DNA of 64,000 nt from a virus: positions 1 to 64,000 of the IMG/VR virus record IMGVR_UViG_3300027804_000050; one strand, written 5' to 3'. Both the position numbers and the translations under genes were made by a program. The notes beneath the pieces are model-generated. The model did not search any database. It worked only from the letters and a program-made list of their open reading frames with translations, and was not told the origin of the DNA. This document shows, piece after piece, positions 36,690 through 52,040 of the stretch (the first letter of the stretch is position 1; each line of letters starts with the position of its first letter).

Positions 36690-37765
36690 TGCGTGGAGTA
36701 GTAGAAATATATTCGATTGAGGATAACACCCCTAAATTACTTTATTCAGAAAGTAATTTAATTGTAGACGGGGCGGGTAAAACTATTGTAGATGCACTAA
36801 CAACTTTTGACGGAGTTTCGGGAATATCTAGTGGATCGGCTATTCTAAACGCTTCAAATTACACCATCCAAGCAATTACTTTCGGTGCCCCATCAGGTGC
36901 TTATTTAAGAAATATACATAACACTACCTACCCATTATTAATAAGTGGGCTATCAAACACAAAATTAACTGTTCTACGAGATGGAGTAACTTCAACCTCC
37001 TTTACTCCACAAATAGATGTTCTCCCTAGTTATCCTAATCCTCTGGATAAAAAGTTAGAATTATCAGCATCTCCTTCAGGATCTTGGTCTGGAATTACAA
37101 TAAAACTTCCATATACTACTAGTGCAGGGGTAACAATTGAAGATCAAGGTCATCATTTAAATATTGCTAGTTTACCTTCCTTGTACAATCAATTTGGAGC
37201 ATCATCACCTCTGGCTGTTTTATTTGGTAATTATGCTTTTTCAGCAGCAGCAAATACCGTTTCAGCTATATTAATTTCTTCTATAAATCAGCTAGATTCA
37301 AATACTGGACAACCTAGTTCTTTTGTAGTTACAGGTAATTTAGCAGCAGGTATAAATTATAATGGTAGATCATTGATAGATTATCATGGATTTATACACA
37401 TGATTAGTCCGTCTGCAAATGTTAATATTAATTTTACTACTACAAATAGTAGTGGACTACAATTAAGTGCTCAAACAACATTTAGCTCTACAGGAGAATT
37501 AGTTTATGGAACCCGAATTTCCCCAACTGATATTGTTGCTTTAAACATAAATGGTGGTATATATCACATGGGATTATGGACAATTGATTTAAATAAGTCT
37601 ATTCAAGCTGGTAATTTCCCTCCATATTCTTTTAGTCAACTAAATAATCCTAGGAAGTATAGATTATTTTGCAAAAAAACTTTTACTAAAAATATAATTG
37701 AGTTTGGAACATTCAGCACTGCACCCTCTGAATTGCAGATAGTTTGGAGAATTAAGTTCTTATGA
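36689..37765 (+). CDS. Baseplate / fibre attachment protein
   Basis: NLIVDG N-terminus, MGLW, LQIVWRIKF C-terminus; paralogous to the next gene. Confidence 0.6.
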   Translation: MRGVVEIYSIEDNTPKLLYSESNLIVDGAGKTIVDALTTFDGVSGISSGSAILNASNYTIQAITFGAPSGAYLRNIHNTTYPLLISGLSNTKLTVLRDGVTSTSFTPQIDVLPSYPNPLDKKLELSASPSGSWSGITIKLPYTTSAGVTIEDQGHHLNIASLPSLYNQFGASSPLAVLFGNYAFSAAANTVSAILISSINQLDSNTGQPSSFVVTGNLAAGINYNGRSLIDYHGFIHMISPSANVNINFTTTNSSGLQLSAQTTFSSTGELVYGTRISPTDIVALNINGGIYHMGLWTIDLNKSIQAGNFPPYSFSQLNNPRKYRLFCKKTFTKNIIEFGTFSTAPSELQIVWRIKFL

Positions 37766-38358
37766 ATTTTATAGAAGATTTAGGAATAAATGGACATTTA
37801 ACTATCACGAAAGTTAATCGGGATGGTTCGGAAGAACTTATATTCGATGACCATAATATTATTGTTTCAGGAATGGGAGTTGGATTAGCTTTCTTATTTG
37901 CTGGACTAGGCTCAACTAAGATAACTGATTTTCATTTAGACAGAGTCCAAATTGGAGTTTCTGGAAATTCCAGTTTAGAAACTAGTACAACCTTCCAACT
38001 ATCTGGTCCATTATCATCTACAGCAGAATACGGAGTAAATTCTGATCAAAATGTTGTTCAATCAAATCAATTAGTAAACGGAACATCTGTTTCTAATAAA
38101 TTTTTTATAAAATTACCTAGAAGCAAAGTAACTAGAATAAATGATAACTCTGTAAGATATACAATTGTTTTAGATGAAGATGCCTGTAACAGTTCAACTA
38201 TAAGAAATAATTTACCTATAAATGAAATAGGATTGTTTATGAAAAACCCTCAAGGAGCAGCAACAGATAGTTCCTTGTTAGTTGCATATAGATATTTTAG
38301 CAATATACTAAAGACTGACGATTTTAGTCTCATTTTTAGATGGACAATAAACTTCTGA
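37762..38358 (+). CDS. Baseplate / fibre attachment protein (collar/gp8-type)
   Basis: HNIIVSG, INEIGLF, AYRYF..I.KT..FSLIFRWTINF. Confidence 0.7.
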   Translation: MNFIEDLGINGHLTITKVNRDGSEELIFDDHNIIVSGMGVGLAFLFAGLGSTKITDFHLDRVQIGVSGNSSLETSTTFQLSGPLSSTAEYGVNSDQNVVQSNQLVNGTSVSNKFFIKLPRSKVTRINDNSVRYTIVLDEDACNSSTIRNNLPINEIGLFMKNPQGAATDSSLLVAYRYFSNILKTDDFSLIFRWTINF

Positions 38359-38359
38359 T

Positions 38360-41300
38360 ATGGCTTTCAATAAAAACGATATTTACACTTCTAGCGGGAG
38401 CTTAAGAGTATACAACTCTTGGACTCCTTATGTCAGCAAGTTTGATACTAGTTCCTTCTATAACTGGGAACAGGATAACTTACCTCTTTATGATCTTGAA
38501 GAAAGAACTTATGAACTTTGGGAATATGCAGGCTTCCCAACTTCGAGTATCACTGGTTTAGCTTTGACAGTTAGTGCTGATACTCCCGCTCTAACTCTAG
38601 CTCAAAATAGAAATATTTATACTTCAGTAAGTGCCGCAGTAGCATCATTACCAAGGGTTATTAGATTTCCAGTTTTGATTGAAGTTGCTAATTTTGGTGA
38701 TCTAGGACCTTTAGAATTACATGATTTCCAAATAGTAGAAAATGGATCTATAGAAATAATAAATAGAAATTATGTTAAAGCATACACTGCATCTAGCACT
38801 GTAGGGCAGGTAGGAACAGTATACGGCAATACTTATATTACTAGAGTTGATAGTTTAGATATAAGTGCTAGTATTTACTCTTCAGTAGGCTCCACCTCTT
38901 GTGTTAATATTTCTTCAACTGTTTTTAGCGGGTCTAACGACACTAGATTTACTTCAGTAAATTCAGTATTATATCCAAAAGTAACTGATAGAAAAGCACC
39001 TTTATCGGTTACTATAAGAGACTCCGCTGCCATAGGAACAACTTCAAATCGATTCCCACTAGGAGCTTATGAAACAACCTCCCCCACTGATTTAACTGTT
39101 TCAAACGGTGGTGATTTCTCAGCAATGTCAAATTACCCAGTTGGAATGATATCCAGAGATGTAGTTGCTACAACTAATGATGTTTTCGGTTTAATATATG
39201 GTAACAATTTATCTCGGATGTCAGTGAAAAACTGTTCTGGGAAAATATACATTAGAAACTTTTTCGTAGATGGTCAAAATACTAATTTAACTACAGCCAC
39301 TAAAGTAGGTATAGAAATTCTAAATTCAGATGTTATTTTAGAAAATTGTACAGCAGTAAGGTGTCGGGAAGCTGGATTTGCATTCAATAATTCTAAAGTA
39401 ATTCTCTCTAGAGGAGCTTTTGCTTATAGAAATTATGGACTAAGCAGTTTGTCTGTGAGAGAAACAACAAAATCTTGTGGATTTAAAGTACTGAATAGTG
39501 AAGTAATTTTGAGTGCATTAGTAGGTGGGGCATCTACAGAAGCTAGAGATTATCAAGCTAGTGGATATGATATAATGTTCATGGCTTCAAGAAATCCAAT
39601 TGGTTTCTTATTAGAAAATTCTAAACTATCGGGAGGTTTAAATAGATCGGATAGTGCAACACCTTCTCAAAACTCAACTTTTGCAGCAGAGTATAATAAT
39701 TTAGTAGGTGTAAAAGCATTTAATTCAATTTTAGATCTAAATGGTTTGATTGATATTTATCAAAATAAAGTGGGTATTGAATTAAATAATTCTAATCTCC
39801 TCGTTGATGAATTAACAGTTGATAGGCATACAAATGAAGGATTGATTGCTAGAAATTCAACCATATCTTATATTAAATCTGGTTATCCGATTGCTTATGG
39901 TTCAGTTAGAAGAGCCATAGAGTTCTATCTCAATGGTCAGCATTTAGTTTTAAATAATAATTCAAAACTAAAATATACAAGACAAAATGATCTTCCTGCT
40001 CTTTCTACTGGAGGAATGCTTTTCAAAGATTCACATGGAGTTAGTTATTTAACTGGCGGGGCTTGGCAAAAAATACCCGGAATAAAAGTAGACTCTAATT
40101 CAACAGCAGAGTTTGTTGAAGCTCAACTATTAAATCAAAATGGTAATTATGATGACCAAGCTTCTCATTATGGAACTGTGTTAAATTGTACAAATAATTC
40201 AACAGGATCTCTATACGGAACTAGCAATCACTGCACCATGGCTTTAGGAACATCTGGAAGCTATGAAAAACAATCTAAGATGTCTACTTTATATGCAGGA
40301 TCTAATTCAAAAATAACAATTGCTGGGCCTACAGTAGTAGGTCAGGGTGGGGTCGCCATATTGGCTGAAGATGGATCTACAATAGAAATCGGTCCTGCAA
40401 AAGATAATGAAACAGGTGAATTAGCTGTAAGTTCCTTCGCTTTAGCCAATGCTGCAAATCATACTAGTGTTGATTTACATGCAACCAGAGCTTGCTTGGT
40501 TGCGAATAGAAATTCAACAATTGATATGCATGATTTAGGTAGTTATAGAAATACTTGGATAGGGACTGTTGGTGCAACGGTAGCAGATTATGATTATGAT
40601 GTCGCAGATTTATCAAGTTATGTTGGTTCTGGATCTTTAAGATTCTTAGCTAATCCAATGGACTCTAATGCTGTAACTCAAAATACTACTAATACAATAG
40701 CATATGCAGAAACAACTAATCCAACATTCACTACAGATGCAAATACAAATACTTACAGGTATTTAGCAGATTTCTCTAAAACTTTAGGAGGGGTTTGTGT
40801 TAGAGCGTTGGGTAATAGTACTGTCCATGTTAACAATGTTCACTTTGGAAAAGGCCCAAATGCCAGTCCATTAGATGGATTAGTTTACAATGCAAGTGGA
40901 TCTGATTGTGATAGACTTTTAATTTGGAATATCGCGGATAGTTCAAAACTTTCTGTAGCACATGTTTCGGTTAGTGGTCAATATCCTGCCGATGCCGGAT
41001 ATCATGGTCCTCAATCTTATTGGACATCTAGTAATAATGGTTCTACTACTGGAACTGCAACTGTAGTGTATGGAGCACCATCTTCTACACCAGACTTTGG
41101 AGCATTAAGCGTTCTAGATCCTTTTGGAGCAGGTGGAAGTTCGGTTTCTTCAGTATGGAAATCCACTTCTGGTGTTTCTATAAATGATCCGTTTGACAGA
41201 TTCTATCCTGTACTAGGCAACATAGATACATCAACTGTATCGGCTTTAACTCAGCGTGCAGGTATACCGATTAGTGGAATAACTGTAAGTGGTATACAAT

Positions 41301-41854
41301 TAGGAACTAGCTCCACCTCTCTGTATAATAATCAAGGTGTATTTAGAATTTACTTCTCACCTAAGTCTGAATGTAAATACTTAGCTCATGATCTAAGTGG
41401 TTATGAAAATGGGCCTTTAGATTATAGAACTAACAAATATAGTAGATCTTTCTCCGCTCAAACAGGAGTTGTTTATCAGTTGTTTGCACAAGGCTACGGA
41501 TTATCTGCACCTGTGTCAGGAATTTCTACTACACCTGAATTGAGTTCTATTTACCCAACATTATTAAAATTAAGTAGGGACTCAAACGGAGATGGAATTC
41601 CAGATACTTTGTACACTTCTGGATACTATTATTGTAAGGAGTTCTTAGATGATGATCCAACACAAGTTATGTTGGATGAATCAGCAGCTAACCTTTTTGC
41701 CAATGCTAAAAATTGTGCGGTTGGAATGGGTGGAAGACCAAGGAGAGTAACTATTTACAAGGCTGGAACTGATGAACAGTTTAGTGAATCCAATACTGGA
41801 GACATTTATGGATTCAAATCAGCAAATGTATTCGATCTAAAGAGAGATAATTGA
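38360..41854 (+). CDS. Tailspike-like protein with right-handed beta-helix
   Basis: Repeated GI..xNS.V.L rungs (GIEILNSDV, GFAFNNSKV, GIELNNSNL). Confidence 0.7.
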   Translation: MAFNKNDIYTSSGSLRVYNSWTPYVSKFDTSSFYNWEQDNLPLYDLEERTYELWEYAGFPTSSITGLALTVSADTPALTLAQNRNIYTSVSAAVASLPRVIRFPVLIEVANFGDLGPLELHDFQIVENGSIEIINRNYVKAYTASSTVGQVGTVYGNTYITRVDSLDISASIYSSVGSTSCVNISSTVFSGSNDTRFTSVNSVLYPKVTDRKAPLSVTIRDSAAIGTTSNRFPLGAYETTSPTDLTVSNGGDFSAMSNYPVGMISRDVVATTNDVFGLIYGNNLSRMSVKNCSGKIYIRNFFVDGQNTNLTTATKVGIEILNSDVILENCTAVRCREAGFAFNNSKVILSRGAFAYRNYGLSSLSVRETTKSCGFKVLNSEVILSALVGGASTEARDYQASGYDIMFMASRNPIGFLLENSKLSGGLNRSDSATPSQNSTFAAEYNNLVGVKAFNSILDLNGLIDIYQNKVGIELNNSNLLVDELTVDRHTNEGLIARNSTISYIKSGYPIAYGSVRRAIEFYLNGQHLVLNNNSKLKYTRQNDLPALSTGGMLFKDSHGVSYLTGGAWQKIPGIKVDSNSTAEFVEAQLLNQNGNYDDQASHYGTVLNCTNNSTGSLYGTSNHCTMALGTSGSYEKQSKMSTLYAGSNSKITIAGPTVVGQGGVAILAEDGSTIEIGPAKDNETGELAVSSFALANAANHTSVDLHATRACLVANRNSTIDMHDLGSYRNTWIGTVGATVADYDYDVADLSSYVGSGSLRFLANPMDSNAVTQNTTNTIAYAETTNPTFTTDANTNTYRYLADFSKTLGGVCVRALGNSTVHVNNVHFGKGPNASPLDGLVYNASGSDCDRLLIWNIADSSKLSVAHVSVSGQYPADAGYHGPQSYWTSSNNGSTTGTATVVYGAPSSTPDFGALSVLDPFGAGGSSVSSVWKSTSGVSINDPFDRFYPVLGNIDTSTVSALTQRAGIPISGITVSGIQLGTSSTSLYNNQGVFRIYFSPKSECKYLAHDLSGYENGPLDYRTNKYSRSFSAQTGVVYQLFAQGYGLSAPVSGISTTPELSSIYPTLLKLSRDSNGDGIPDTLYTSGYYYCKEFLDDDPTQVMLDESAANLFANAKNCAVGMGGRPRRVTIYKAGTDEQFSESNTGDIYGFKSANVFDLKRDN

Positions 41855-41855
41855 T

Positions 41856-44429
41856 ATGGCAAAATTTACATTCTCAGATAGTCAGTATAAGTTTACCGAG
41901 CCTGTAAGATATTTTAAGGCTAACGATCCTTACTATTTTGAAGTTGATAATATTCCTATTAAGCAACTTCAAGAAAACTGCTTATGGTTGAGGGATCAAC
42001 TTAGAAAACTTGGTGGAGGAAGGAGAACTGGACCAGAAACGGAGACTAATGGAGAGACTAGACCCGGTAGAGGACCCGGAGGGTCTAGTGATGGACCTGT
42101 AGATAGACCTTCGAATGGAACTCTAGAAATCACAAGAAGAGATATAGATGAATTAAGACCTTACGCAACAGGTGGGGATAGAGTTGTAAGAGTTAGACCC
42201 GGAAGATACACTGCTAGAGTCAACGATGTCGGTAATGAACCTCTACAATACTTAGTAAAAATTATAGGTCAAGAATTACAGGATACGGAACTTTATAAGA
42301 CTTTTACTTTAAATTCAACTAATGATACTTTTAATACTTTAGTTATAAATAGTATTAATAAGTTAAAGCAAACTGTTGCATCCAATGCGCTTCACATGAA
42401 TGGTTTAGCAGAAAGGGCATTTACTTGGGCAGTTAGAGACATTGATACTCCCAGTGATTATGGTCAACTAGCAACTGATGCTTTAGAATATGCAGGTCTA
42501 GGTGGAGTGGGATTGTTAGGACCTTTTGTATATTCACAAGCTCTCCTTTGGTATAAGGATTCAGGTTCAACTGACGGGTTCTATATTCTACCTAATTACC
42601 ACCCAACAAGCGTTGCCATTGGTTTTGCAAAACTTCCAACATTAGAAAACCATCTAATAAAAAGATGGAGAGGTGTTGCTAGAACAGCTATCGTTGATGT
42701 TCCTGAAGAACTCTCCATAGAAATTCCACAATTTAGTCGAGAAGACTTTTTCTATACAGATGAAAATGGAGCTAAACAATATTTAAATGCTACCCATAGA
42801 ATAGATATGGTTTTTATCTATTCAAAACCTGTCGATGCATCTGGCGTATCTATACTGCAAAATGGTACGGTGGTTCAAATAACCTCACCTGTTCTTGGAG
42901 TTGTCAGAGGTGCAGGAATAGGTATGAATTTTGAGCCAAAGACCTCAACTCAATATCAGCCTCAACCATCTTTAGATGCTCAAGGAAATCCAACAATCCT
43001 AGCTAGCGTCGCAGATCAATCAGCAGAAAATATAGGATTCTTACAATCTTCTGGAACTGAGCAAAGCTTTACCGTTAAGGGGTCTTTCCCTGCCCCAGAC
43101 GATTTGCTAAATATCGCACCTCTGCTTTCTCAAGATTTAGAAGATAATGCTATAGAATTAATTGGTCAATCAATTCTTCCTGTAGCTTATATTTTCGTTG
43201 ATGGTGATTCCGAAGAAATAGCAGGTACTAGAGTTATTGCCGAGTCCGATGTAATTGACATTAGACCTTTACTAAGAACCACAGAATTAACATACAATGA
43301 AAGGGCTGGACTTGCTGCTGCAATTCCACAAATTTCTTTGGCTAATCCAGTTGTAGGAAAATCTGTTTTAGATAAAGAAATGAAGAGAATGTCTGAATAT
43401 GTGGCAAACAAAATATCCGAAATTCAAACAAATACTCAAACCCAAGATGCTAATAATGGAAAACTTTTAGCCACAGGTTATGTATTTGGTGGATTAAATT
43501 ATGGAGTAGAGGGAGCGTTATTCCACTATTACAAGCAAAAATTTGCAAATGATGGAAATGAAACAAATGATTCTGATATTTATATAAGAAATTATATTCA
43601 ATCTAGATATGGATATGCTAATTTTGACACTGGTGTATTAGATTTCCCTACATATCCTGATTGGGATATTTCTCGTTGGTGTTTAGACGGTAACTTCCAG
43701 AATAAAGGTGTGTTTCCTAATGATAGAATAACCCCTGTTATATCTCACCAGCCTAACCCCGGTTCTATAAACGAGGCAGACCGCTTTGTAAAAGCAGGAA
43801 GCTATAGGGATGCTGTCACCAATGCGGGGCTAACTTTAACTGGTGGAGTTCCCAATAGAGTTAATAATTTTACTAATACAGAAATTTCTCAATCGGGAGG
43901 TGGTGATAATGAAATGGGTCAACATAAAATAAATTTTATGTATATTTCAAAAAGAATATTGTTTAATCGTCCTTCTTGGATGTTAGATTACCACATAGAT
44001 GCAGAGTTAATTAATAGTTTAGGATTAACATACAGAGGCTCAGGATTGAATAATCCAGACGGAGAAGCAGATCAAGCAGCATATACTGGAATTTGGATTG
44101 AAAAAGGATTTAACGAATTTACTATTTATGTAGGATTCGTGACTATGGATAATTTGCGCGGTAGTGGGGCAACACAAGATTTACTTCCACACAGGAACAG
44201 AGATAGCCAAAGATTTGCATCTTTTATTGTTCCTGTAAGAGATATTTTATACTCTGATGTTAATGCAGATTCTTCATGTGGGGCAGGATTCCTTGGTAAT
44301 GTTAGGGTTGGTAAATGCACTTACCCAACAATAAAATGGAAGATGACAGGAGTATCTCAAAATTCTGCTGCATATCATTACGCTAATTTAAACTCTGCTA
44401 ATCCTTTGATTGCTCTCAATGGAGTGTGA
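41856..44429 (+). CDS. Tail/baseplate-associated protein
   Basis: N-terminus shares DN.P...L.E motif with the preceding gene; structural operon. Confidence 0.6.
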   Translation: MAKFTFSDSQYKFTEPVRYFKANDPYYFEVDNIPIKQLQENCLWLRDQLRKLGGGRRTGPETETNGETRPGRGPGGSSDGPVDRPSNGTLEITRRDIDELRPYATGGDRVVRVRPGRYTARVNDVGNEPLQYLVKIIGQELQDTELYKTFTLNSTNDTFNTLVINSINKLKQTVASNALHMNGLAERAFTWAVRDIDTPSDYGQLATDALEYAGLGGVGLLGPFVYSQALLWYKDSGSTDGFYILPNYHPTSVAIGFAKLPTLENHLIKRWRGVARTAIVDVPEELSIEIPQFSREDFFYTDENGAKQYLNATHRIDMVFIYSKPVDASGVSILQNGTVVQITSPVLGVVRGAGIGMNFEPKTSTQYQPQPSLDAQGNPTILASVADQSAENIGFLQSSGTEQSFTVKGSFPAPDDLLNIAPLLSQDLEDNAIELIGQSILPVAYIFVDGDSEEIAGTRVIAESDVIDIRPLLRTTELTYNERAGLAAAIPQISLANPVVGKSVLDKEMKRMSEYVANKISEIQTNTQTQDANNGKLLATGYVFGGLNYGVEGALFHYYKQKFANDGNETNDSDIYIRNYIQSRYGYANFDTGVLDFPTYPDWDISRWCLDGNFQNKGVFPNDRITPVISHQPNPGSINEADRFVKAGSYRDAVTNAGLTLTGGVPNRVNNFTNTEISQSGGGDNEMGQHKINFMYISKRILFNRPSWMLDYHIDAELINSLGLTYRGSGLNNPDGEADQAAYTGIWIEKGFNEFTIYVGFVTMDNLRGSGATQDLLPHRNRDSQRFASFIVPVRDILYSDVNADSSCGAGFLGNVRVGKCTYPTIKWKMTGVSQNSAAYHYANLNSANPLIALNGV

Positions 44430-44432
44430 TAA

Positions 44433-47400
44433 GTGACTGAAACACCATCTTTTGAGTGTGGTAAATTCTATCCCGGTCAAGGTCCGGGTAACAGGAGAGA
44501 TTATGAACCTCCGGTTACTCCAAAACGACATCCTAGAAGAAGGAGAAGAGATGGCGAACCTTGGGGTCCAAAAGGTCCTATTAGGGATAAACCTCCAACA
44601 AGATTAGTATTAAGAACCTGCTGGATTTGTAAAGAACGGCCAGCAACAGACCCAGATGGATTTGCTTGCGGTAGAGATGGACTTCCTGCTGCTAATGGTC
44701 CATGCAGATGCAGATTAAGAACTGATAGATTTTGTGAAAAAAAAGAAACTTGGGTTCCTGATTTGCCCGGAGCAACAAACTGTCCTACTAATCAATTTCA
44801 AACAGAAGCAGCTTGTGCATCAGTTTGTAGAGATGGTGTAGATGTAGTTTGCCCAGAATTTCCTTGTATTTATTATCTGTGCTGCATAAAAGAAGCAAAC
44901 GAAGAAAGAGTCCCTTGTCCTGAGTATGGTCCGGGATGTACTTGCCCTAAATTAACTGAAGCAACTTGTGAGATAGATGATGCAGGTACTATTGGATTAA
45001 ATGAACAGTGCCCACCTCCTCCAGTTGGGTGTCTCAATGGTGGTATTTTAGTTGCTTGGTCTTTAAATAATACACAAGCATGTAATAGCCCAGAATGTAG
45101 AGATAGACTAGGACCACCAAGATGTCCAGAACCAGATAGACCTTCTACTGAACCGCAATCCTTTTTCTGCCCACCTAAAACTTGTGTTTATTGTGATATT
45201 AGACCTCCTCAAGGAGATGAGGGATCTTGGAGTCAGTGTGTTCCTCCTAATAATCCTTTATGTAGATGTAGGATAACTCAAGTAAGAGAATGTAAAACGG
45301 TTCAACTACAAGGAACTAGAAATCCAGTTACGGGAGAATGTGAATATCCTCCAATTACTAATCCTTTTAGTTATGGTTGCGAACCAGAATCTTTAAATGC
45401 ATGTTTAGCTGGTTGCAGACCTATTATAGAAGAAGACTGTAACTTCGGAGAGCGTCGAGGACCTTTACCTCCGGGACCCGGGCCATCAACTCCGGGAGGT
45501 CCTACTGGCCCCGGACCATCAACTCCCGGTCCCGGAGAGTCTACGGGAACTTCCCCTATATCTAAAAATTGTAAGTTTTGTATACAAACAATAACAACTG
45601 GGTATGAACCCTGCGTTGGCCCAAATGGGCAACCAAATTGTAGATGTCAAAAAATTTATAATAGAATTTGTGAAACAAAACAAGTATTTAGAAGACCAAA
45701 TGGAACATTTCCTAACTGCACTACTGTTCAACCAACAGGAACAATAGTTAACTCTCCACCATATTCAAGTTGTGCCCCTATTGACGGGCAACCTTGTACA
45801 AATAAGAGAGGTCCCCCGCAATGTCCTGAGGAACCTAGTAGACTAGGGGAAACAACTGGAACTCCTCTTCCACAATCAGTGACTTGGTATGTTTGTTTAA
45901 GAGCTACAACAGCTTCTACTGGAGTTGGAGCAGTTTTAGCAGGAGGATGTTTTGCTAGATCATCAGTAAATAGACCCCCTAATGGATATGCAACATTAGT
46001 AGAATGTGAAAATGTATGTTCTAGACCACAAGGTGAACCTACAGGAACAGGGACGGGCGGTGGTCCAGTCCCACTAGTAGAAAGATATTCTTGCAATCAA
46101 ATAAATGGAAAGTGTAGAAGAGTTTTTGTTCCACAAAATCAAACAACTGGAACTTATGCTACTTTAGCTGCATGTGAAAGAGAATGTAAACTTAGAGCCG
46201 AAGGCTCTGAAATAGTTAATACTACAAATTTACCTGATCCAATAGGAACTTATTTTAGATGTAATAAAGCTACAGGAAATTGCTCTCCTGTATTTACAAC
46301 AAAAACAACAGCCGATAGGGAAGGTTATTTCTCAGATGTAAATGCCTGTAGATTAAGATGTAGATCAAATACGGCAGAAGCAGATAGATTGTCTAGAACT
46401 ACTTTAGGAGGCATTAGCCAAGTTGAAATTGGAGAAGGTAGTAATGGAGGAATTATTTCTGATCCTACTGAATTAAGAACTTATTACAAATGTATCAATG
46501 GCACATGTATTACAAGCACTGCAACTCCTCAACAAGCAACAAATCCAAACTATCATACTACATTACAAGCATGTTTAAACTATTGTCAAAATAATAAAAA
46601 TTCAGGGCCTATTTCTGTAAATAGATTAGGTGAGGGTATTTTAACTGACCCAATTATTTTAGATGATGGTGGGGCAGATGATGGGCCAGTAATAATTGAA
46701 AGAACTCCTCCTTTAGACGACATAGGAGAAACTACTTTGCCTAACGGAGAAAATAATCCGAATAGACCTAAAGTAAATCCTTCTGATGCAAATGTATCTA
46801 CACGCCCTTATTATGAATTACCTGAGAATAATGGTGCTGGAACAGTAAATTTAGATCCAGCAGCAGCAGTGTATGTTCCTCCTGTGTTAGATTTTTCTGA
46901 AGCAGTTGTTGTGAACTATAGACAAACCGATTTATTTGCGGAATATATTCATGAAGCAATAAATTATTATTTAGATAAAAACAATACTTCAGAGGATTGG
47001 AGATCTTATTACTCATCAGATTTAACTATACAAAATATAGAAAGAAGTTTAAAACCCTCTGCAATTAAAATCTTTGAAGCAATCACTGATCAAAAAGGTG
47101 ATTTAATTGGAAAAGAATATTTCTTAGAAGTTATTAGAGGAAAATTAATTAATGGAACTATCTCTGATTTTAATCTACCCTACTATAGAAAATTAGCAGA
47201 GAAAAGTAAAAAGAGAGTAGTTAAACCAATTAAGCAACAGGATCAAATTGTTAATACATTGCAAGCATTCGCATATCTTGAAAATAAATTAATTCCTTTG
47301 GATCCTGACAAAGGCACTGGCAGAACTTCAAAACTCACTCCATTGATAAAAACTTTAGCAACTGATTTGGAAAAATCATTGACGGTAATTGTTAATGATG

Positions 47401-48662
47401 AGGAAAGAAAGTTTTATATCAATGATGATGATATTGTAGTTGGTAGAGCTAATTTAAAAATCTCAGATGGAGATTATATCACGGTTGGAGTTGGAACTGG
47501 TCAAAGAAGAATTTATCTAGACACAGAAAAAGATCATGCATATCTTATTTCAGATTTAGATAAAGAAATAGCTTTAAATTTATTAGGTGGCGATTCTTCA
47601 ATTAGATTAACTGCATCAGCAACATTTGCGGTTAATTTGGAATTTAACTATCCATTAACTGGTGCTAGAGAAAATGTTTATTTCTTAAAGTTAAAAACAG
47701 AATCTGTAGTTACAGATAGAGCTACCGAATATATTGATAATACTACAGCAAGATATGATTTATGTTCTATAAATACTCAACAGGATTTAGACGCAATTAA
47801 TGAATATGTAAAGTTTAAGGCAAACCATTATCTCTTCCCTGTTCATCCAGATGATGTATTCTTAGATTATGTTGTTTCTTCAGGCCACTTATATTTACAA
47901 CAACAGGATATTAGATTTGATGGGCATGCTAGAAAAACTAATAAAAATATACCGTTATTAGTAAGACAACTTCCTTGGTATATCTTGCTCTTCCCAACAA
48001 ACAAAGAAGAAAATAATCCTTTTGATATTCAGTCTGATTTAATAGAATTTGAAAGTGGTGCAAGAACTACAAGAGAATTAATATTTGAAATGAGTATAGA
48101 CTCTGATGAGTATGATGCTAATATTACGACAGCTAAGTTTGTTAATATAGGCACTGTTTATCCAGACGAAAATGTTTACGGCGAATATGACTTAGACTCC
48201 AGAAAAGTTATATTCGATCCAAGTAGCACATTCTTCTCGTCTGGATATAAAGAAGAAAAGACTACGCAAAGACCAAGAACGCCGTTAAGAAAGATAAAAG
48301 AAATAATTTCTGAACTAAATAATAATTATGTTCTTGATCGAGGACTAACAACCTTTGATGTTTTCTCTCGTCTTAATTTTACAGACTTTAATAAATTTAT
48401 ATCTAATAGAACTAATAAAGTTATTTTTGATAAGATAAAAGAGGGCGCGATAGAAAATGTTAAAGTGTATGAAGTTACTAAATACTCTGGGGATGCTTAT
48501 TTGAATAAGACTGCGTTACTTAGGAGACGCTCTGCGGCAACAACTGATACTTACCCTCAAATAAGATCATTGAACTCAGGTGAATATATAGAGCCACCCA
48601 CGCAGACAGAAGCTCCAAGGATCATAACTTCAACCCCCAAGCAAATAAAGCCATTACAATAA
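44433..48662 (+). CDS. Cysteine/proline-rich modular protein, probably virion-associated
   Basis: About 61 Cys in the first ~720 aa in repeated modules; GTG start; lies between tail genes and PAAR. Confidence 0.75.
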   Translation: MTETPSFECGKFYPGQGPGNRRDYEPPVTPKRHPRRRRRDGEPWGPKGPIRDKPPTRLVLRTCWICKERPATDPDGFACGRDGLPAANGPCRCRLRTDRFCEKKETWVPDLPGATNCPTNQFQTEAACASVCRDGVDVVCPEFPCIYYLCCIKEANEERVPCPEYGPGCTCPKLTEATCEIDDAGTIGLNEQCPPPPVGCLNGGILVAWSLNNTQACNSPECRDRLGPPRCPEPDRPSTEPQSFFCPPKTCVYCDIRPPQGDEGSWSQCVPPNNPLCRCRITQVRECKTVQLQGTRNPVTGECEYPPITNPFSYGCEPESLNACLAGCRPIIEEDCNFGERRGPLPPGPGPSTPGGPTGPGPSTPGPGESTGTSPISKNCKFCIQTITTGYEPCVGPNGQPNCRCQKIYNRICETKQVFRRPNGTFPNCTTVQPTGTIVNSPPYSSCAPIDGQPCTNKRGPPQCPEEPSRLGETTGTPLPQSVTWYVCLRATTASTGVGAVLAGGCFARSSVNRPPNGYATLVECENVCSRPQGEPTGTGTGGGPVPLVERYSCNQINGKCRRVFVPQNQTTGTYATLAACERECKLRAEGSEIVNTTNLPDPIGTYFRCNKATGNCSPVFTTKTTADREGYFSDVNACRLRCRSNTAEADRLSRTTLGGISQVEIGEGSNGGIISDPTELRTYYKCINGTCITSTATPQQATNPNYHTTLQACLNYCQNNKNSGPISVNRLGEGILTDPIILDDGGADDGPVIIERTPPLDDIGETTLPNGENNPNRPKVNPSDANVSTRPYYELPENNGAGTVNLDPAAAVYVPPVLDFSEAVVVNYRQTDLFAEYIHEAINYYLDKNNTSEDWRSYYSSDLTIQNIERSLKPSAIKIFEAITDQKGDLIGKEYFLEVIRGKLINGTISDFNLPYYRKLAEKSKKRVVKPIKQQDQIVNTLQAFAYLENKLIPLDPDKGTGRTSKLTPLIKTLATDLEKSLTVIVNDEERKFYINDDDIVVGRANLKISDGDYITVGVGTGQRRIYLDTEKDHAYLISDLDKEIALNLLGGDSSIRLTASATFAVNLEFNYPLTGARENVYFLKLKTESVVTDRATEYIDNTTARYDLCSINTQQDLDAINEYVKFKANHYLFPVHPDDVFLDYVVSSGHLYLQQQDIRFDGHARKTNKNIPLLVRQLPWYILLFPTNKEENNPFDIQSDLIEFESGARTTRELIFEMSIDSDEYDANITTAKFVNIGTVYPDENVYGEYDLDSRKVIFDPSSTFFSSGYKEEKTTQRPRTPLRKIKEIISELNNNYVLDRGLTTFDVFSRLNFTDFNKFISNRTNKVIFDKIKEGAIENVKVYEVTKYSGDAYLNKTALLRRRSAATTDTYPQIRSLNSGEYIEPPTQTEAPRIITSTPKQIKPLQ

Positions 48663-48663
48663 T

Positions 48664-48963
48664 ATGCCATTTAGTTTAATAGGAAATACAGAAGTTTTAA
48701 ATTGTGGGGCTGTTCAAGAGGTTCAATCTCAAGGAACTGTCTTTGTTGCAAATAAGTTAGTTGTGGTTGTAGGAGATTTAACCACCCCACACCCAACAGC
48801 TAAATACCCAGCAGTAATAAAAAACCCAGCAAATACTTCTAAAGTTTTTATTAACAATATACCTATCGTAGTAGAAGAAGATGGTATTCCGGGGCATGGC
48901 TCAAGTCCACATTCCCCAAGGAATAAATATGTGGATAATGGTCATAATGTAAAAGCATACTAA
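48664..48963 (+). CDS. PAAR spike-tip protein (gp5.4-like)
   Basis: TVFV, GD...PH, SKVFIN..P, D...H...H, NV.A. Confidence 0.8.
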   Translation: MPFSLIGNTEVLNCGAVQEVQSQGTVFVANKLVVVVGDLTTPHPTAKYPAVIKNPANTSKVFINNIPIVVEEDGIPGHGSSPHSPRNKYVDNGHNVKAY

Positions 48964-49039
48964 AAAAATAAAAAAATATATTATTTGTAATATCTATACT
49001 ACATAAGTTAGAGCTTACAATTTTAATTGGAGAAAAGCT

Positions 49040-49585
49040 ATGAAACATGTTAATTTAAATGATGAATTCCGTAACAAGCTCCTTGAGTCAGCCGCTTGGG
49101 GTAAGATTGGCCTAAACATTAACGAAGGCAAGGTTGAAGAGGGCCAAGAAAGCCTTACTGAGGAAACTGACGCTCAAGGTTACGAAATAATTCAAGACCA
49201 AGAGGAAGAGTCTATTGATGAAGGCTCCGCTCATGTTTGCCCACTATGCACCTCGCTATTACCAGAAGCAATAGAAGAGGAAAGAGTTCTAGAGCACTTA
49301 GAGATAATTGCTAATGTTCTAGATCGCATAACACAGGTAAACGAAAGCGAAGAAGACCTAGAGTCCGTCATAGCTGAATGTGTTCGTGAAGTTCTATTAG
49401 AATCGGATGACGATATAATAGACGAAGACGAAGACATTTCCGAAGAAGAATATGAGCAAGAAGACTCCGACGACGATGATGTCGTTGAAGAGGAAATGGA
49501 TAAGGGTTATATGTCATCTTCCAAAGCTGGTAAAGGCAAAATGGGCAAGATGATGAAGGGAAAGAAGTCTAAGAAGTCTTGCTGA
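49040..49585 (+). CDS. Acidic hypothetical protein with CPLC motif, head-associated candidate
   Basis: GGAG SD; several L/I-x-E sites. Confidence 0.6.
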   Translation: MKHVNLNDEFRNKLLESAAWGKIGLNINEGKVEEGQESLTEETDAQGYEIIQDQEEESIDEGSAHVCPLCTSLLPEAIEEERVLEHLEIIANVLDRITQVNESEEDLESVIAECVREVLLESDDDIIDEDEDISEEEYEQEDSDDDDVVEEEMDKGYMSSSKAGKGKMGKMMKGKKSKKSC

Positions 49586-49600
49586 TTTTGATTTGATAAA

Positions 49601-49628
49601 AGCAGTCAAGTGAAATACCTTGACTGCT
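49601..49628 (+). terminator. Hairpin (terminator or processing site)
   Basis: AGCAGTCAAG-N8-CTTGACTGCT; weak U tract. Confidence 0.5.
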
Positions 49629-49650
49629 ATTCTAACTTTAGGGTCCCGCT

Positions 49651-50085
49651 ATGAAACATTATCATTTAGAAGATATTTATAGAGATTTACTAATAACAAA
49701 TTCCTATTGGAAAAAGGCTAATTTAGTTCTTGAATCCGAAGAAATGGAAAAATCAATCCAAGCGGCTGGCGGGGACCCCGAAGCTTACAAAGAAATAAAA
49801 GCTAAAAAACAAAAAGCCGCTGCAAAACCTAAAGTAAGCCCAAAAGTTATACAAAAAAGATTAGATCAATTATCTACAATGAGAGACGAGGCAGAGGCAG
49901 CAGAAGCTGCTGGAGTTAAAGATCCTTTAGATAGACCTTTAATTAAAAACCCTCATACTAATGCAGATGCTAGAGCAGCATTAGTAGCTCAAGATGAAGC
50001 AATGAAAAAAGCCGCTGCTTCTAGAAGAGCAGGTAATATTAGGAAAGAGATACTAAGCAGAAAAAACCCAAGTAAAAAATCATGA
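49651..50085 (+). CDS. Hypothetical basic protein, internal-head candidate
   Basis: 144 aa; Lys/Ala-rich after LVLE. Confidence 0.6.
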   Translation: MKHYHLEDIYRDLLITNSYWKKANLVLESEEMEKSIQAAGGDPEAYKEIKAKKQKAAAKPKVSPKVIQKRLDQLSTMRDEAEAAEAAGVKDPLDRPLIKNPHTNADARAALVAQDEAMKKAAASRRAGNIRKEILSRKNPSKKS

Positions 50086-50537
50086 GTACTTTAAAAAATT
50101 CTGGGATGAGCATAGGCTCTTATGCAGAACAGTTGATCATGAATGAAATGACAACTCCTAAGAAGGCTTTGTCATTTGTTAATAAAACTCCTGAAGTTGA
50201 AAAACAATTAGATATATCTGAAACAGTGGTTCCTGATGAATTCATGAATCAAGTTTTAGGAAAAAAATCAATACCTAAAAAACAGGTTAAGCAAGAGAAA
50301 AAAGTTATTGTTGAAAATGTTGAACCAAAGCAAACTCTGCTTACAGAAGAAAAGGCTGATGTTCTAATAAATCTTTTAGAGGAAGTTAAAACTCTTCTAG
50401 AAATGACTGGGACTGGATGTTGTGGCTGTAACATGGGAGGATCTATGCAAGTTGCTCCTTCCGGTGGCAAGAAGAAAAAATCTGATACTGTTCTTCTTTT
50501 TGCTCAAAAACTAAAAGGTATAAGGAATAAAAAATGA
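50082..50537 (+). CDS. Hypothetical protein, head-associated candidate
   Basis: LLTE and LLEMTGTG motifs; ATGA coupling. Confidence 0.6.
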   Translation: MSTLKNSGMSIGSYAEQLIMNEMTTPKKALSFVNKTPEVEKQLDISETVVPDEFMNQVLGKKSIPKKQVKQEKKVIVENVEPKQTLLTEEKADVLINLLEEVKTLLEMTGTGCCGCNMGGSMQVAPSGGKKKKSDTVLLFAQKLKGIRNKK

Positions 50538-50947
50538 ACTTGGTCGAAATACTAGACTTGTTATTAGAAGCCCGTGGATCTGAATCGGGTCGTTCTTATT
50601 ATACATCTAGAGAAGGAACCAAGAAAGAAAAACACTTAGCCACTAAAGCTAAGGTCACAACCTACAACAGTATAAAACAAGCACTAGCCCAAGCTAGGTA
50701 TGGAGATATTTTTAGCACCAAAGCCGCAAATAGGCTCTATGTTGTTTCTAAAGGCAAATGGGGTTCTAAGAGTGGAAGAGGTAAAATAGCTAAAGGTTTT
50801 ACTCCCGGAAGTTCAACTCCTAACTCTAGCTTCTCCTCAGTTAAGAAACACGCTGCAAGAACTAAACTGAGATATGGGGATGGTGATAAAAAACTAGCAG
50901 CAAAGTATGGCAGTAGAAGTTTAAAAAAGAAATTTGGGGTGAAGTAA
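50534..50947 (+). CDS. Very basic hypothetical protein, internal-head candidate
   Basis: Short LLLE leader then K/R/G/S-rich domain. Confidence 0.65.
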   Translation: MNLVEILDLLLEARGSESGRSYYTSREGTKKEKHLATKAKVTTYNSIKQALAQARYGDIFSTKAANRLYVVSKGKWGSKSGRGKIAKGFTPGSSTPNSSFSSVKKHAARTKLRYGDGDKKLAAKYGSRSLKKKFGVK

Positions 50948-50948
50948 T

Positions 50949-52040
50949 ATGATTATCACAGATGTGTTTTTAATAGAAAGATTACAAGTTATCAATGAAG
51001 GTACAGAAGGAAAAACCATGAAAGTTCGTGGAGTTTTCCAACGCGCAGAAGAATCTAACAGCAATGGTAGAATCTATCCCCAAAATGTACTGAGCAAGCA
51101 ATTAGACAAACTTCAACCATTAATTGAAGGTAGAAGATTGTGTGGCGAGTTGGATCACCCCACTAATGATACCGTAAAGCTATCTAATGCTTCTCACTTG
51201 ATTACCAAACTTGAAATGAAGGGTAATGAAGTTATAGGAGAGGCTGAAATACTTAATACTCCTGCTGGATTAACAGCCCGTGCATTGATAAATGGGGGAG
51301 TTAAGATAGGAATCTCTTCCAGAGGAATGGGAACTTTATCAGAAAGTTCCGATGGAAAAAAGATTGTAAATGAAGATTTTAATCTTATAACATTTGATCT
51401 TGTTGCGGATCCTTCCACTCGTGGTGCATATCCAGAACTTAGCGAATCAAAAAGATCTAAGTTTATAAATGAATCTAAAACTAAGTTACAAAAAGAATCT
51501 AATCTACTTAAGTTAATAAAAAGAAAACTTGATGAAGCATATAATCAATACAATGATGTAAGAGTTGATGAAAGATTAACTGCCAAGCAAAGTAAGTATT
51601 TAGATTATGATAAGGATGGATCTCTTGAGTCTTCAGATTTTGCATCTCTTCGTGCTTCAAAAAGATTGAAAAAATTTAGAAAAGGGAAAAACCAATCTAA
51701 ATTAAAAAAAAAATTAAAGGAAGCTTACCAAATAGATCCAGAAAGAGTTGATGAGTTAGTCGCGGGACTCGGGCAAACAATAGGTAATATTGCTGGACGA
51801 GTTCAAAGTGCCCCCTCTAGATTTATGAAAAGTTTTAAAAAATCATATAAAGAAGGGTTAAAGGGTAAAAAACTGCCCCCTCCTAAAGTAGACCCCGCTG
51901 CTCCAAAACCTGAAGGAGGGTTTTTTAAAAGAACATTAGGTGGGTTAATGGGAGGAGCTATGAGAGGTTTTGATAGGAGTTATTCTGGAAAACCAGTATT
52001 TGGTACAGAAGACAAAGAAGAGTCTAAAGAAAAAGTCTAA
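50949..52040 (+). CDS. gp21: Prohead core protease (T4 gp21-like) with long C-terminal extension
   Basis: N.NGRIYP, GELDHP, GISSRGMG, FDLVADPS. Confidence 0.95.
   Translation: MIITDVFLIERLQVINEGTEGKTMKVRGVFQRAEESNSNGRIYPQNVLSKQLDKLQPLIEGRRLCGELDHPTNDTVKLSNASHLITKLEMKGNEVIGEAEILNTPAGLTARALINGGVKIGISSRGMGTLSESSDGKKIVNEDFNLITFDLVADPSTRGAYPELSESKRSKFINESKTKLQKESNLLKLIKRKLDEAYNQYNDVRVDERLTAKQSKYLDYDKDGSLESSDFASLRASKRLKKFRKGKNQSKLKKKLKEAYQIDPERVDELVAGLGQTIGNIAGRVQSAPSRFMKSFKKSYKEGLKGKKLPPPKVDPAAPKPEGGFFKRTLGGLMGGAMRGFDRSYSGKPVFGTEDKEESKEKV

Follow-up and report, generated by a model that had tools for sequence, protein, structure and literature searches.

The cysteine-rich gene and its modules

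The subject of this analysis is a gene for a large modular protein, very rich in cysteine (Cys), in a 64,000-nucleotide stretch of viral DNA (the window). The window covers the first 64 kb of the IMG/VR virus record IMGVR_UViG_3300027804_000050, which is 106,108 bp long and is rated by CheckV as 95% complete. The product of the gene has 62 Cys by script count, with 61 of them in amino acids (aa) 1-718 and C1111 as the single other. Cys makes up 8.4% of the N-terminal half, with Pro at 12.5% and Gly at 9.9%, but 0.1% of the C-terminal half, the genome mean for Cys being 1.3%; there is no second long open reading frame (ORF) of comparable Cys richness across the 106-kb genome.

Apart from Cys9, the Cys of the N-terminal half fall into modules of two kinds joined by Pro/Gly/Thr-rich linkers. 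Four modules of type A, with Cys spans of 63-140 (10 Cys), 145-231 (12), 246-336 (12) and 380-464 (10), are followed by four of type B with 4 Cys apiece (488-529, 554-585, 610-643 and 687-718). An earlier reading of this DNA from the sequence alone (the sequence-only reading) had described this layout, with its coordinates and counts, and also a basic patch near the N-terminus; the script count agrees with it for all of the modules, and the patch is present. The features of the gene are given below, where pLDDT (predicted local distance difference test) values are those of the AlphaFold2 (AF2) models discussed later.

44433..48662, + strand: whole ORF (P0001), 1409 aa, stop codon included, GTG start
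44421..44424, + strand: Shine-Dalgarno sequence GGAG, 8 nt upstream of the GTG start, read from the sequence
44433..44498, + strand: N-terminal family motif, aa 1-22, TETPSFECGKFYPGQGPGN, with the invariant Cys9; the most constrained part of the gene
44520..44549, + strand: basic patch PKRHPRRRRR, aa 30-39, restricted to the close subclade of P0001, P0003, P0004 and P0005
44604..44864, + strand: module A1, aa 58-144, 10 Cys (C63, 66, 79, 91, 93, 101, 117, 128, 132 and 140); beta-hairpin plus helix in the AF2 model, with 10-residue block means for pLDDT of 63-80
44865..45140, + strand: module A2, aa 145-236, 12 Cys; lowest modelling confidence of all the modules
45159..45452, + strand: module A3, aa 243-340, 12 Cys; pLDDT block means 66-88; a related module is carried by the family member P0019
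45453..45554, + strand: Pro/Gly/Ser/Thr linker, PGPGPSTPGGPTGPGPSTPGPG, pLDDT below 50, with a short imperfect DNA repeat at 45468-45529
45555..45836, + strand: module A4, aa 375-468, 10 Cys
45876..46031, + strand: module B1, aa 482-533, 4 Cys, with a long hairpin insert
46074..46199, + strand: module B2, aa 548-589, 4 Cys, Kunitz-like predicted fold
46242..46373, + strand: module B3, aa 604-647, 4 Cys; pLDDT block means 74-83
46473..46598, + strand: module B4, aa 681-722, 4 Cys, Kunitz-like predicted fold
46599..46832, + strand: spacer from the last module to the C-terminal domain, pLDDT below 50 in both AF2 models
46833..48659, + strand: conserved C-terminal domain, aa ~801-1409, one Cys, mixed alpha/beta

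The GTG start is 3 nt past the stop of the upstream gene, and the orthologs keep the N-terminus of the protein from residue 2 on. As read from the sequence, the protein has no signal peptide or hydrophobic N-terminal stretch. A lipoprotein or signal-peptide role for the N-terminal Cys was considered and rejected, the hydrophobic segment being absent, and a thioester reading (GCGEQ-like) of the FxCG motif was rejected because no Gln comes after it and xPGxGP follows instead. An origin of the modules in a recent DNA-level duplication or tandem array was also rejected, as the modules are old at the DNA level, and so was paralogy of the gene with other large structural genes. The GC content is 0.41 over positions 44001-46000 of the window and 0.33-0.37 in the flanks. 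This rise coincides with the region coding for Pro, Gly, Cys and Arg-rich sequence, and the simplest reading is thus that it reflects coding composition rather than foreign DNA.

Conservation, parity and paired loss of Cys

In the ortholog with 69% identity all 62 Cys are kept, with the non-Cys residues of the same region being 58% identical, and the Cys pattern is, on this comparison, not a matter of chance. Relatives of the protein have a variable middle between a conserved N-terminal motif and a conserved C-terminal domain, and this middle has an even number of Cys in 29 of the 31 relatives left after de-duplication (binomial P 2.3e-7, treating the relatives as independent and ignoring shared ancestry, as does the treatment of co-loss below). 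As controls, the count for the C-terminal domain is even in 12 of the same 31 proteins, and that for the product of the neighbouring gene g1164 in about half. The even parity excludes unpaired Cys in the middle. The middle count is divisible by four in only 14 of the 31, and His is scarce there; the absence of any excess of multiples of four speaks against a design in which all of the Cys are in Cys4 metal sites.

Losses of Cys among the close relatives are also paired. P0004 lacks exactly C287 and C324 of A3, and P0005 lacks exactly C380 and C429 of A4, which are Cys 1 and 7 of the A pattern. The positions of C380 and C429 are likewise without Cys in a homologous module of two other loci (L013 and L015), and in A3 of P0005 the net loss is again two. 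For the B modules, B2 is deleted as a unit in P0004, and in P0005 a deletion has left B1 strand 1 fused in register to B3 strand 2, with eight Cys gone and a chimeric 4-Cys module as the product.

These patterns are as predicted for intramodule disulfides in independently folding beads, to which we take them to point, and are hard to square with Cys4 metal sites. The sequence-only reading had suggested disulfide-bonded domains, and that suggestion is now backed by the even counts, the paired losses and a predicted Kunitz-like fold in which the conserved Cys are at Kunitz disulfide sites.

Predicted fold of the B modules

The Cys region was modelled with AF2 from an alignment of eight sequences, with a mean pLDDT of 58.8 overall, 65-88 in the modules and below 50 in the linkers. 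Every module is predicted to have a beta-hairpin followed by a helix. In a Foldseek search of PDB the Kunitz/BPTI proteins came out on top, with the tri-Kunitz protein SmCI first (E 2.5e-3), followed by boophilin, bikunin, APPI and BPTI, with target TM (template modelling) scores of 0.6-0.76 and root-mean-square deviations (rmsd) of 1.3-3.2 Å. The multi-Kunitz proteins align across successive B modules.

A VIA search of 48,161 representative chains, which is independent of Foldseek, had Kunitz domains in all of its top 16 rows. In VIA alignments 41-45 residues of B2 (aa 545-590) superposed on residues 14/16-58 of BPTI and APPI (Z 4.3-5.0, rmsd 1.3-1.8 Å, 14-20% identity), and HAI-1 was also among its Kunitz matches. 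B4 matched huwentoxin-XI (Z 4.6), and the search of representative chains added the Kunitz domain of Amblyomin-X for B4 (Z 4.3) and, weakly, TdPI, which is Kunitz-related, for B1 (Z 2.7). No Kunitz chain was matched by B3.

The register of the Cys to those of BPTI can be drawn from the aligned ranges and the Cys spacing, and would put C561, C581 and C585 of B2 at the places of BPTI C30, C51 and C55, with C554 at that of Tyr23. The B modules begin at about BPTI residue 14-16, right after a Pro/Gly linker, and have no counterpart of C5, C14 or C38. A motif G-x-[YF]-x-[ST]-L-x-x-C-x3-C is present in B1 to B4 and in modules of three other loci (L001, L012 and L016), and the spacer from hairpin to helix is 14-17 residues in the B modules.

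At the sequence level the similarity is much less. A profile of 11 B modules run against PDB sequences picked out sea-anemone Kunitz inhibitors, in the same register, only at E ~0.5, and the Pfam family PF00014 was not matched by the 11 isolated modules even at E<=10. With hhalign, the B modules aligned with a BPTI sequence over F45-C55 only, with P 0.079. The same profile run against the longer proteins of a 5.8-billion collection found only members of its own family and no bacterial secreted protein.

Thus in the AF2 model, and there only, B2 and B4, and more weakly B1, have the Kunitz fold, and the B modules lack a match to the family hidden Markov model (HMM), the six-Cys pattern and the clamped P1 loop. 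They look like a minimal, N-terminally truncated Kunitz fold with two disulfides and no clamped protease-binding loop. This bears on two points of the sequence-only reading. It had called the protein eukaryote-like, which holds at the level of predicted fold for three of the four 4-Cys modules, but no eukaryotic protein is significantly similar to it in sequence, and nothing speaks for an origin in eukaryotes. It had also named a match to a well-described family as a finding that would tell against it, and here the outcome is divided, with a fold that resembles Kunitz/BPTI and a family membership that fails.

It is natural to ask if the B modules are protease inhibitors, which could shield the virion from proteases in the environment or on the host surface, or act against a host protease at adsorption. 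The top structural matches (BPTI, APPI, HAI-1, bikunin and SmCI) are true Kunitz inhibitors, and the alignment of multi-Kunitz proteins over successive B modules is also in keeping with such a function. However with the equivalents of C5, C14 and C38 missing there is no 14-38 disulfide to frame the canonical binding loop, the residues of the would-be P1 region vary among modules and orthologs, and the failure to match PF00014 also tells against it. Furthermore many proteins with the Kunitz fold, such as the dendrotoxins and collagen VI C5, are not inhibitors. We think it very unlikely that inhibition is the function of the B modules.

The A modules and the C-terminal domain

For the A modules, 15 instances from five lineages can be aligned and have seven invariant Cys columns in the order C, C, CxC, C, CxxxC. 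A comparison of A and B modules by hhalign found only the [YF]x[ST]xxxCxxxC helix as a common part, with a probability of 25%. There was no match for the A-module profile among PDB sequences and no structural match for the 10-Cys module. The pair C287 and C324 that is lost together in P0004 consists of the strand-2 Cys and the first helix Cys, with the same geometry as the Kunitz 30-51 pair, and for this reason the A modules may be elaborated versions of the same hairpin-helix unit as is predicted for the B modules.

Metal binding by the modules is an alternative to disulfides. In this alternative the modules are of zinc-ribbon or knuckle-like form, or hold an Fe-S (iron-sulphur) centre, and they fold in the reducing cytoplasm with the Cys as metal ligands. 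The A modules of the window have CxxC and CxC on the two strands of the hairpin, and A2 has weak, zinc-ribbon-like structural matches (Z 2.4-2.7) to the zinc-binding hairpins of the MCM N-terminal domain, aRF1 and Cas9. Metal binding is known for PAAR and for several fibre proteins of phages, and a reducing cytoplasm with no phage oxidase would suit metal ligation well. Nonetheless we think metal binding distinctly unlikely. The first Cys of the CxxC is in a Cx6-8C arrangement, or is missing, in homologous modules, and the loss of two Cys with the rest of the module retained would ruin a Cys4 site. The count of 14 in 31 for multiples of four and the scarcity of His are against it, as is the predicted superposition of the B modules, in register, on a fold in which the Cys are disulfide-bonded. 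There was no significant match to a zinc-finger family of Pfam, the best being PyrI_C (E 0.018) and ZF-HD_dimer (E 0.1), each in one of 11 modules.

The C-terminal domain was modelled with confidence by AF2 from 18 sequences as a mixed alpha/beta structure (pLDDT 79.9, predicted TM score 0.81). The 650-residue model, searched whole, so that matches to single subdomains may be missed, had no Foldseek match in PDB or BFVD with E<=1e-3, and Z reached no more than 3.2 in the wide VIA search. Conserved motifs of the domain include TEKDHAY and PLLVRQxPWY, and its fold, whether structural or enzymatic, may be one that is yet undescribed.

Family, synteny and evolution

Relatives of the Cys-rich half are few. 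A word-indexed search recovered only the protein itself and one 1425-aa ortholog, and an exhaustive HMMER search of 1.84 billion representatives with the Cys region found only the family members P0004 and P0019 and a spurious 173-aa match. The whole Cys region had no match among PDB sequences, and there was no usable match in the ESM Atlas. For the whole protein there was no Pfam family at E<=1 and no PHROG match, and tblastn searches of 50,697 phage records, made with the whole protein and with the C-terminal domain of a distant relative, found no match.

The C-terminal half has a far wider family, comprising 17 database proteins of 895-1425 aa and 45 IMG/VR loci. Members of the family have three parts in common: an N-terminal motif of about 20 aa with the invariant Cys, the variable middle, and the conserved domain of about 600 aa, which has 0-4 Cys. 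The N-terminal consensus is TFGCGxFLPGxGPxNF, which occurs only once in this genome. The shorter form [FLY]xCGx[FLVIY]xPG is present in 32 of the 35 family ORFs that have the N-terminus inside their own locus, and also in database homologs. The middle is 214-794 aa long and wholly different between lineages, although always Pro/Gly-rich and usually Cys-rich. By comparison of these sequences, the bead type is specific to lineage and the even parity is general.

The distant relatives (P0010-P0017 and L017-L050) have other, unrelated-looking Cys patterns, with for example C.C...C...C.DC, CPDI, and acidic and Gly-rich stretches, and in one relative (L045, and P0018) the middle has no Cys.

In a comparison with the 69%-identical ortholog the ratio of nonsynonymous to synonymous substitution (dN/dS, for which dS is saturated) was 0.04 for aa 1-57, 0.22 for the A modules, 0.35 for the B modules and 0.12 for the C-terminal domain. 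On these figures the Cys region is under purifying selection, yet the middle is the fastest-evolving part of the gene.

The genes around the Cys-rich gene that are needed for the discussion of synteny are as follows.

37762-38358: g198, upstream baseplate-region protein
38360-41854, + strand: g1164, conserved upstream partner, syntenic across the clade
41856-44429, + strand: g857, conserved upstream partner, syntenic across the clade
48664..48963, + strand: PAAR-like gene, 99 aa, matching phrog_281 (2.2e-9) and starting 1 nt past the stop of the Cys-rich gene

The window has a T4-like structural block with TerL, portal, prohead protease, gp23-type major capsid protein (MCP) and sheath, in which the MCP is about 30-34% identical to cyanophage MCPs. 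The same block includes a gp5-like spike, gp6-like and gp7/P2-I-like wedge proteins and the PAAR-like protein. The gene order is g358, g198, g1164, g857, the Cys-rich gene and the PAAR-like gene, followed by head genes, and the Cys-rich gene is downstream of the gp5-, gp6- and gp7-like genes and upstream of those for the head. The order g358-g198-g1164-g857-[Cys-variable gene]-g181-g151-g137-prohead protease recurs, wherever the flanks are present, in 40 more distant IMG/VR loci (L012-L051, compared with positions 36689-52040 of the window). The sequence comparisons thus make it a core gene of a clade of uncultured T4-like myoviruses.

The gene is in a baseplate/tail block with conserved synteny, as is to be expected of a tail or baseplate component. 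Indeed it is because the gene is packed tightly between baseplate-region genes and PAAR, with an order that recurs in relatives, that we propose a structural role for the protein. The alternative is a non-structural or exported product that is in the structural block by chance. That the protein has no homology to a known structural family would allow this, and disulfide-rich beads are typical of exported proteins. However the protein has neither a signal peptide nor a hydrophobic stretch at the N-terminus, and both the tight packing and the strictly conserved place between tail and head modules in related loci are hard to explain for such a product, which we regard as extremely improbable.

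The sequence-only reading had made much of the adjacent PAAR gene, and the adjacency is real for the window and for one other locus (L013), but is not a feature of the family. In 11 more distant loci that were inspected there is no small PAAR-like ORF after the gene, and those loci run straight on to head-module genes; tblastn with the PAAR-like protein of the window gave no match in any of the 40 loci. The match of this protein to PAAR_motif of Pfam (0.0015) is under the cut-off for that family.

A fragment of a family member is on a 4094-bp contig (CAZLHZ010000239.1, our L053) that was binned in a metagenome-assembled genome (MAG) of 'uncultured Actinomycetes'. The phage MCP was not found elsewhere in that MAG, and for this reason the contig is probably mis-binned and is at best a weak clue to the host. 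One homolog derives from a TARA Oceans sample.

Possible redox partners and cross-linking

The sequence-only reading had seen no thiol oxidase in the window, and this holds for the whole 106-kb genome, in which there was no Pfam-level match to Erv1/Alr, thioredoxin, glutaredoxin or DsbA. It had also put forward a DUF1360-like membrane protein with a CxxC as a speculative partner. There is such an ORF at 2475-2864 on the - strand, with a Pfam score of 18.2 bits, or 25.8 with neighbouring segments, but nothing ties it to thiol chemistry.

Disulfides in the virion have been demonstrated by experiment in two phages. In cyanophage Pam3 the fibres are attached to the wedge through an N-terminal Cys (Cys28) of the fibre and are freed by dithiothreitol (DTT) (PMC9942802), and in Agrobacterium phage Milano an extensive disulfide network joins receptor-binding proteins (RBPs), baseplate and sheath (PMC10811340). 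With these two cases virion disulfides are already established for phages assembled in the cytoplasm, and the view in the sequence-only reading that disulfides would be very unusual for such a particle has to be narrowed. What is new here is the number of the proposed bonds and their intradomain, extracellular-type character.

The neighbouring proteins also have Cys that are invariant or nearly so across about 30 relatives, these being C42 and C821 in g857, C292, C330, C712, C850 and C1092 in g1164, and C142 in g198. This is a hint, by analogy with Pam3 and Milano, that disulfides may link the tail periphery as a whole in this clade.

It could then be that the Cys of the Cys-rich protein are mainly for intermolecular bonds, to other copies of itself or to g857, g1164 or the wedge, so that they act, like the disulfides of Pam3 and Milano, as a covalent cement or a redox latch for the baseplate. 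Cys9 is invariant and the odd Cys of the C-terminal domain is not, so that Cys9 needs a partner elsewhere, for which the invariant Cys in g857 (C42 and C821) and in g1164 (five columns) are candidates. The fibres of Pam3 and the RBPs of Milano, held by disulfides to the baseplate, are precedents (PMC9942802, PMC10811340). However the even counts, the paired loss within modules and the compact predicted modules indicate that the 60 Cys of the middle pair within modules, and a middle that is hypervariable in both length and module type is hard to fit with fixed intermolecular partners. The probability that we give to cross-linking as the main role of the Cys is therefore quite low. For Cys9 alone cross-linking may still apply, and it would be compatible with intramodule bonding of the rest.

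A proposed role for the protein

We think it probable that the Cys-rich protein is a core protein of the tail or baseplate periphery, with an exposed and flexible appendage of disulfide-locked beads that mediates adhesion or recognition of the host surface. Its conserved C-terminal domain, some 600 aa long, would be built into the baseplate, with the N-terminal motif and its invariant Cys9 as a docking or cross-linking site. Between these two ends would be a fast-evolving string of beads, the four A and four B modules, on flexible Pro/Gly/Thr linkers. Each bead would be stapled by disulfides within the module. For B modules the predicted pairs are the strand-2 Cys with the first helix Cys and the strand-1 Cys with the second helix Cys, and for A modules C6-C8 and C1-C7. 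In the absence of a phage-encoded oxidase, the beads would acquire their bonds at a late stage of infection, or in oxic water once the cell has lysed. The outcome would be a flexible appendage, resistant to proteases and to shear, that faces the environment, for which adhesion or host-surface recognition is the most likely function.

There are several points that weigh against this proposal. The cytoplasm is reducing and there is no detectable phage oxidase, which is a difficulty for the folding of about 30 disulfides. The even parity is also compatible with a mixture of Cys4 metal sites and disulfides, and there are only three or four events of paired loss. AF2 had no more than eight sequences from which to model the Cys region, and the predicted fold has a mean pLDDT of 58.8, with 65-88 in the modules. 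The sequence similarity of the B modules to Kunitz domains is not significant, and a Z of about 5 is common by the tool's own warning, although near the ceiling for a 45-residue domain, and the match is to a model. Finally no homology or fold match in Pfam, PHROGs, PDB, BFVD or the 50,697 phage records links the C-terminal domain to a known baseplate or fibre protein.

One can go further and combine the observations in a single, more speculative scheme. The virion would have an extracellular-type appendage, built in the cytoplasm from Kunitz-like and novel 10-Cys beads with about 30 disulfides and with no phage oxidase, and would be oxidised only after release. Redox would then be an infectivity switch, with the beads and the Cys9 anchor locking in oxic water and unlocking at a reducing host surface, and the Kunitz-like beads would either have branched very early from the BPTI fold or have arrived at it independently, outside the eukaryotes, and would be used for host binding or for defence against proteases. 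Taken as a whole we consider this scheme rather unlikely.

Disulfide-rich mini-domains are a hallmark of secreted eukaryotic proteins and of periplasmic proteins, and are unexpected in a particle assembled in a reducing cytoplasm. If the adhesive bead appendage that we favour is correct, then in a widespread clade of aquatic myoviruses, as yet uncultured, the fastest-evolving part of the tail is an array of disulfide-knotted beads, some of them a minimal two-disulfide version of the Kunitz fold. Such a tail would allow tests of how and when disulfides arise in virions, and of whether redox gates infectivity. The beads would also be a new class of scaffold for phage adhesins, compact and evolvable, that might be of use in protein engineering. 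The C-terminal domain and N-terminal motif mark an undescribed core structural family, with more than 45 loci, that will be useful in the annotation of marine viromes.

Comparison with known systems

With regard to Kunitz/BPTI domains, the B modules have in common with them a predicted beta-hairpin and C-terminal helix, and the helix motif [YF]-x-[ST]-x3-C-x3-C in the same register. The tandem arrangement of the B modules is also found in bikunin and SmCI. However the Kunitz/BPTI domains have six Cys, in disulfides 5-55, 14-38 and 30-51, whereas the B modules have four and lack the N-terminal segment and the 14-38 clamp, and unlike Kunitz domains they are in a phage structural protein, as we take it to be, with no signal peptide.

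Pam3 and Milano resemble the proposed system in having myovirus tail or baseplate proteins that are made in the cytoplasm and yet have functional disulfides in the virion. Cys28 of the Pam3 fibre is paralleled by the invariant Cys9, also near the N-terminus, and its candidate partner Cys in g857 and g1164 are invariant. The difference is that Pam3 and Milano have a few intersubunit disulfides on ordinary folds, whereas here about 30 putative intramodule ones would define eight small domains. The proteins of Pam3 (including gp24) and of Milano have no relation in sequence or fold to the Cys-rich protein.

A further parallel is with the domain-array decorations and adhesins of phage particles, such as arrays of Ig-like, FN3 or BACON domains of T4 Hoc type and the modular receptor-binding fibres. 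The domains of these arrays are beta-sandwiches, in contrast to the Cys-stapled mini-domains proposed here, and the variable part of the Cys-rich protein is between two conserved ends rather than C-terminal, with its role in binding being putative. Nonetheless in both cases there is a conserved anchor with a fast-evolving array of small domains on flexible linkers, and the gain, loss and in-register fusion of the Cys-rich modules is a further likeness to the domain-array adhesins.

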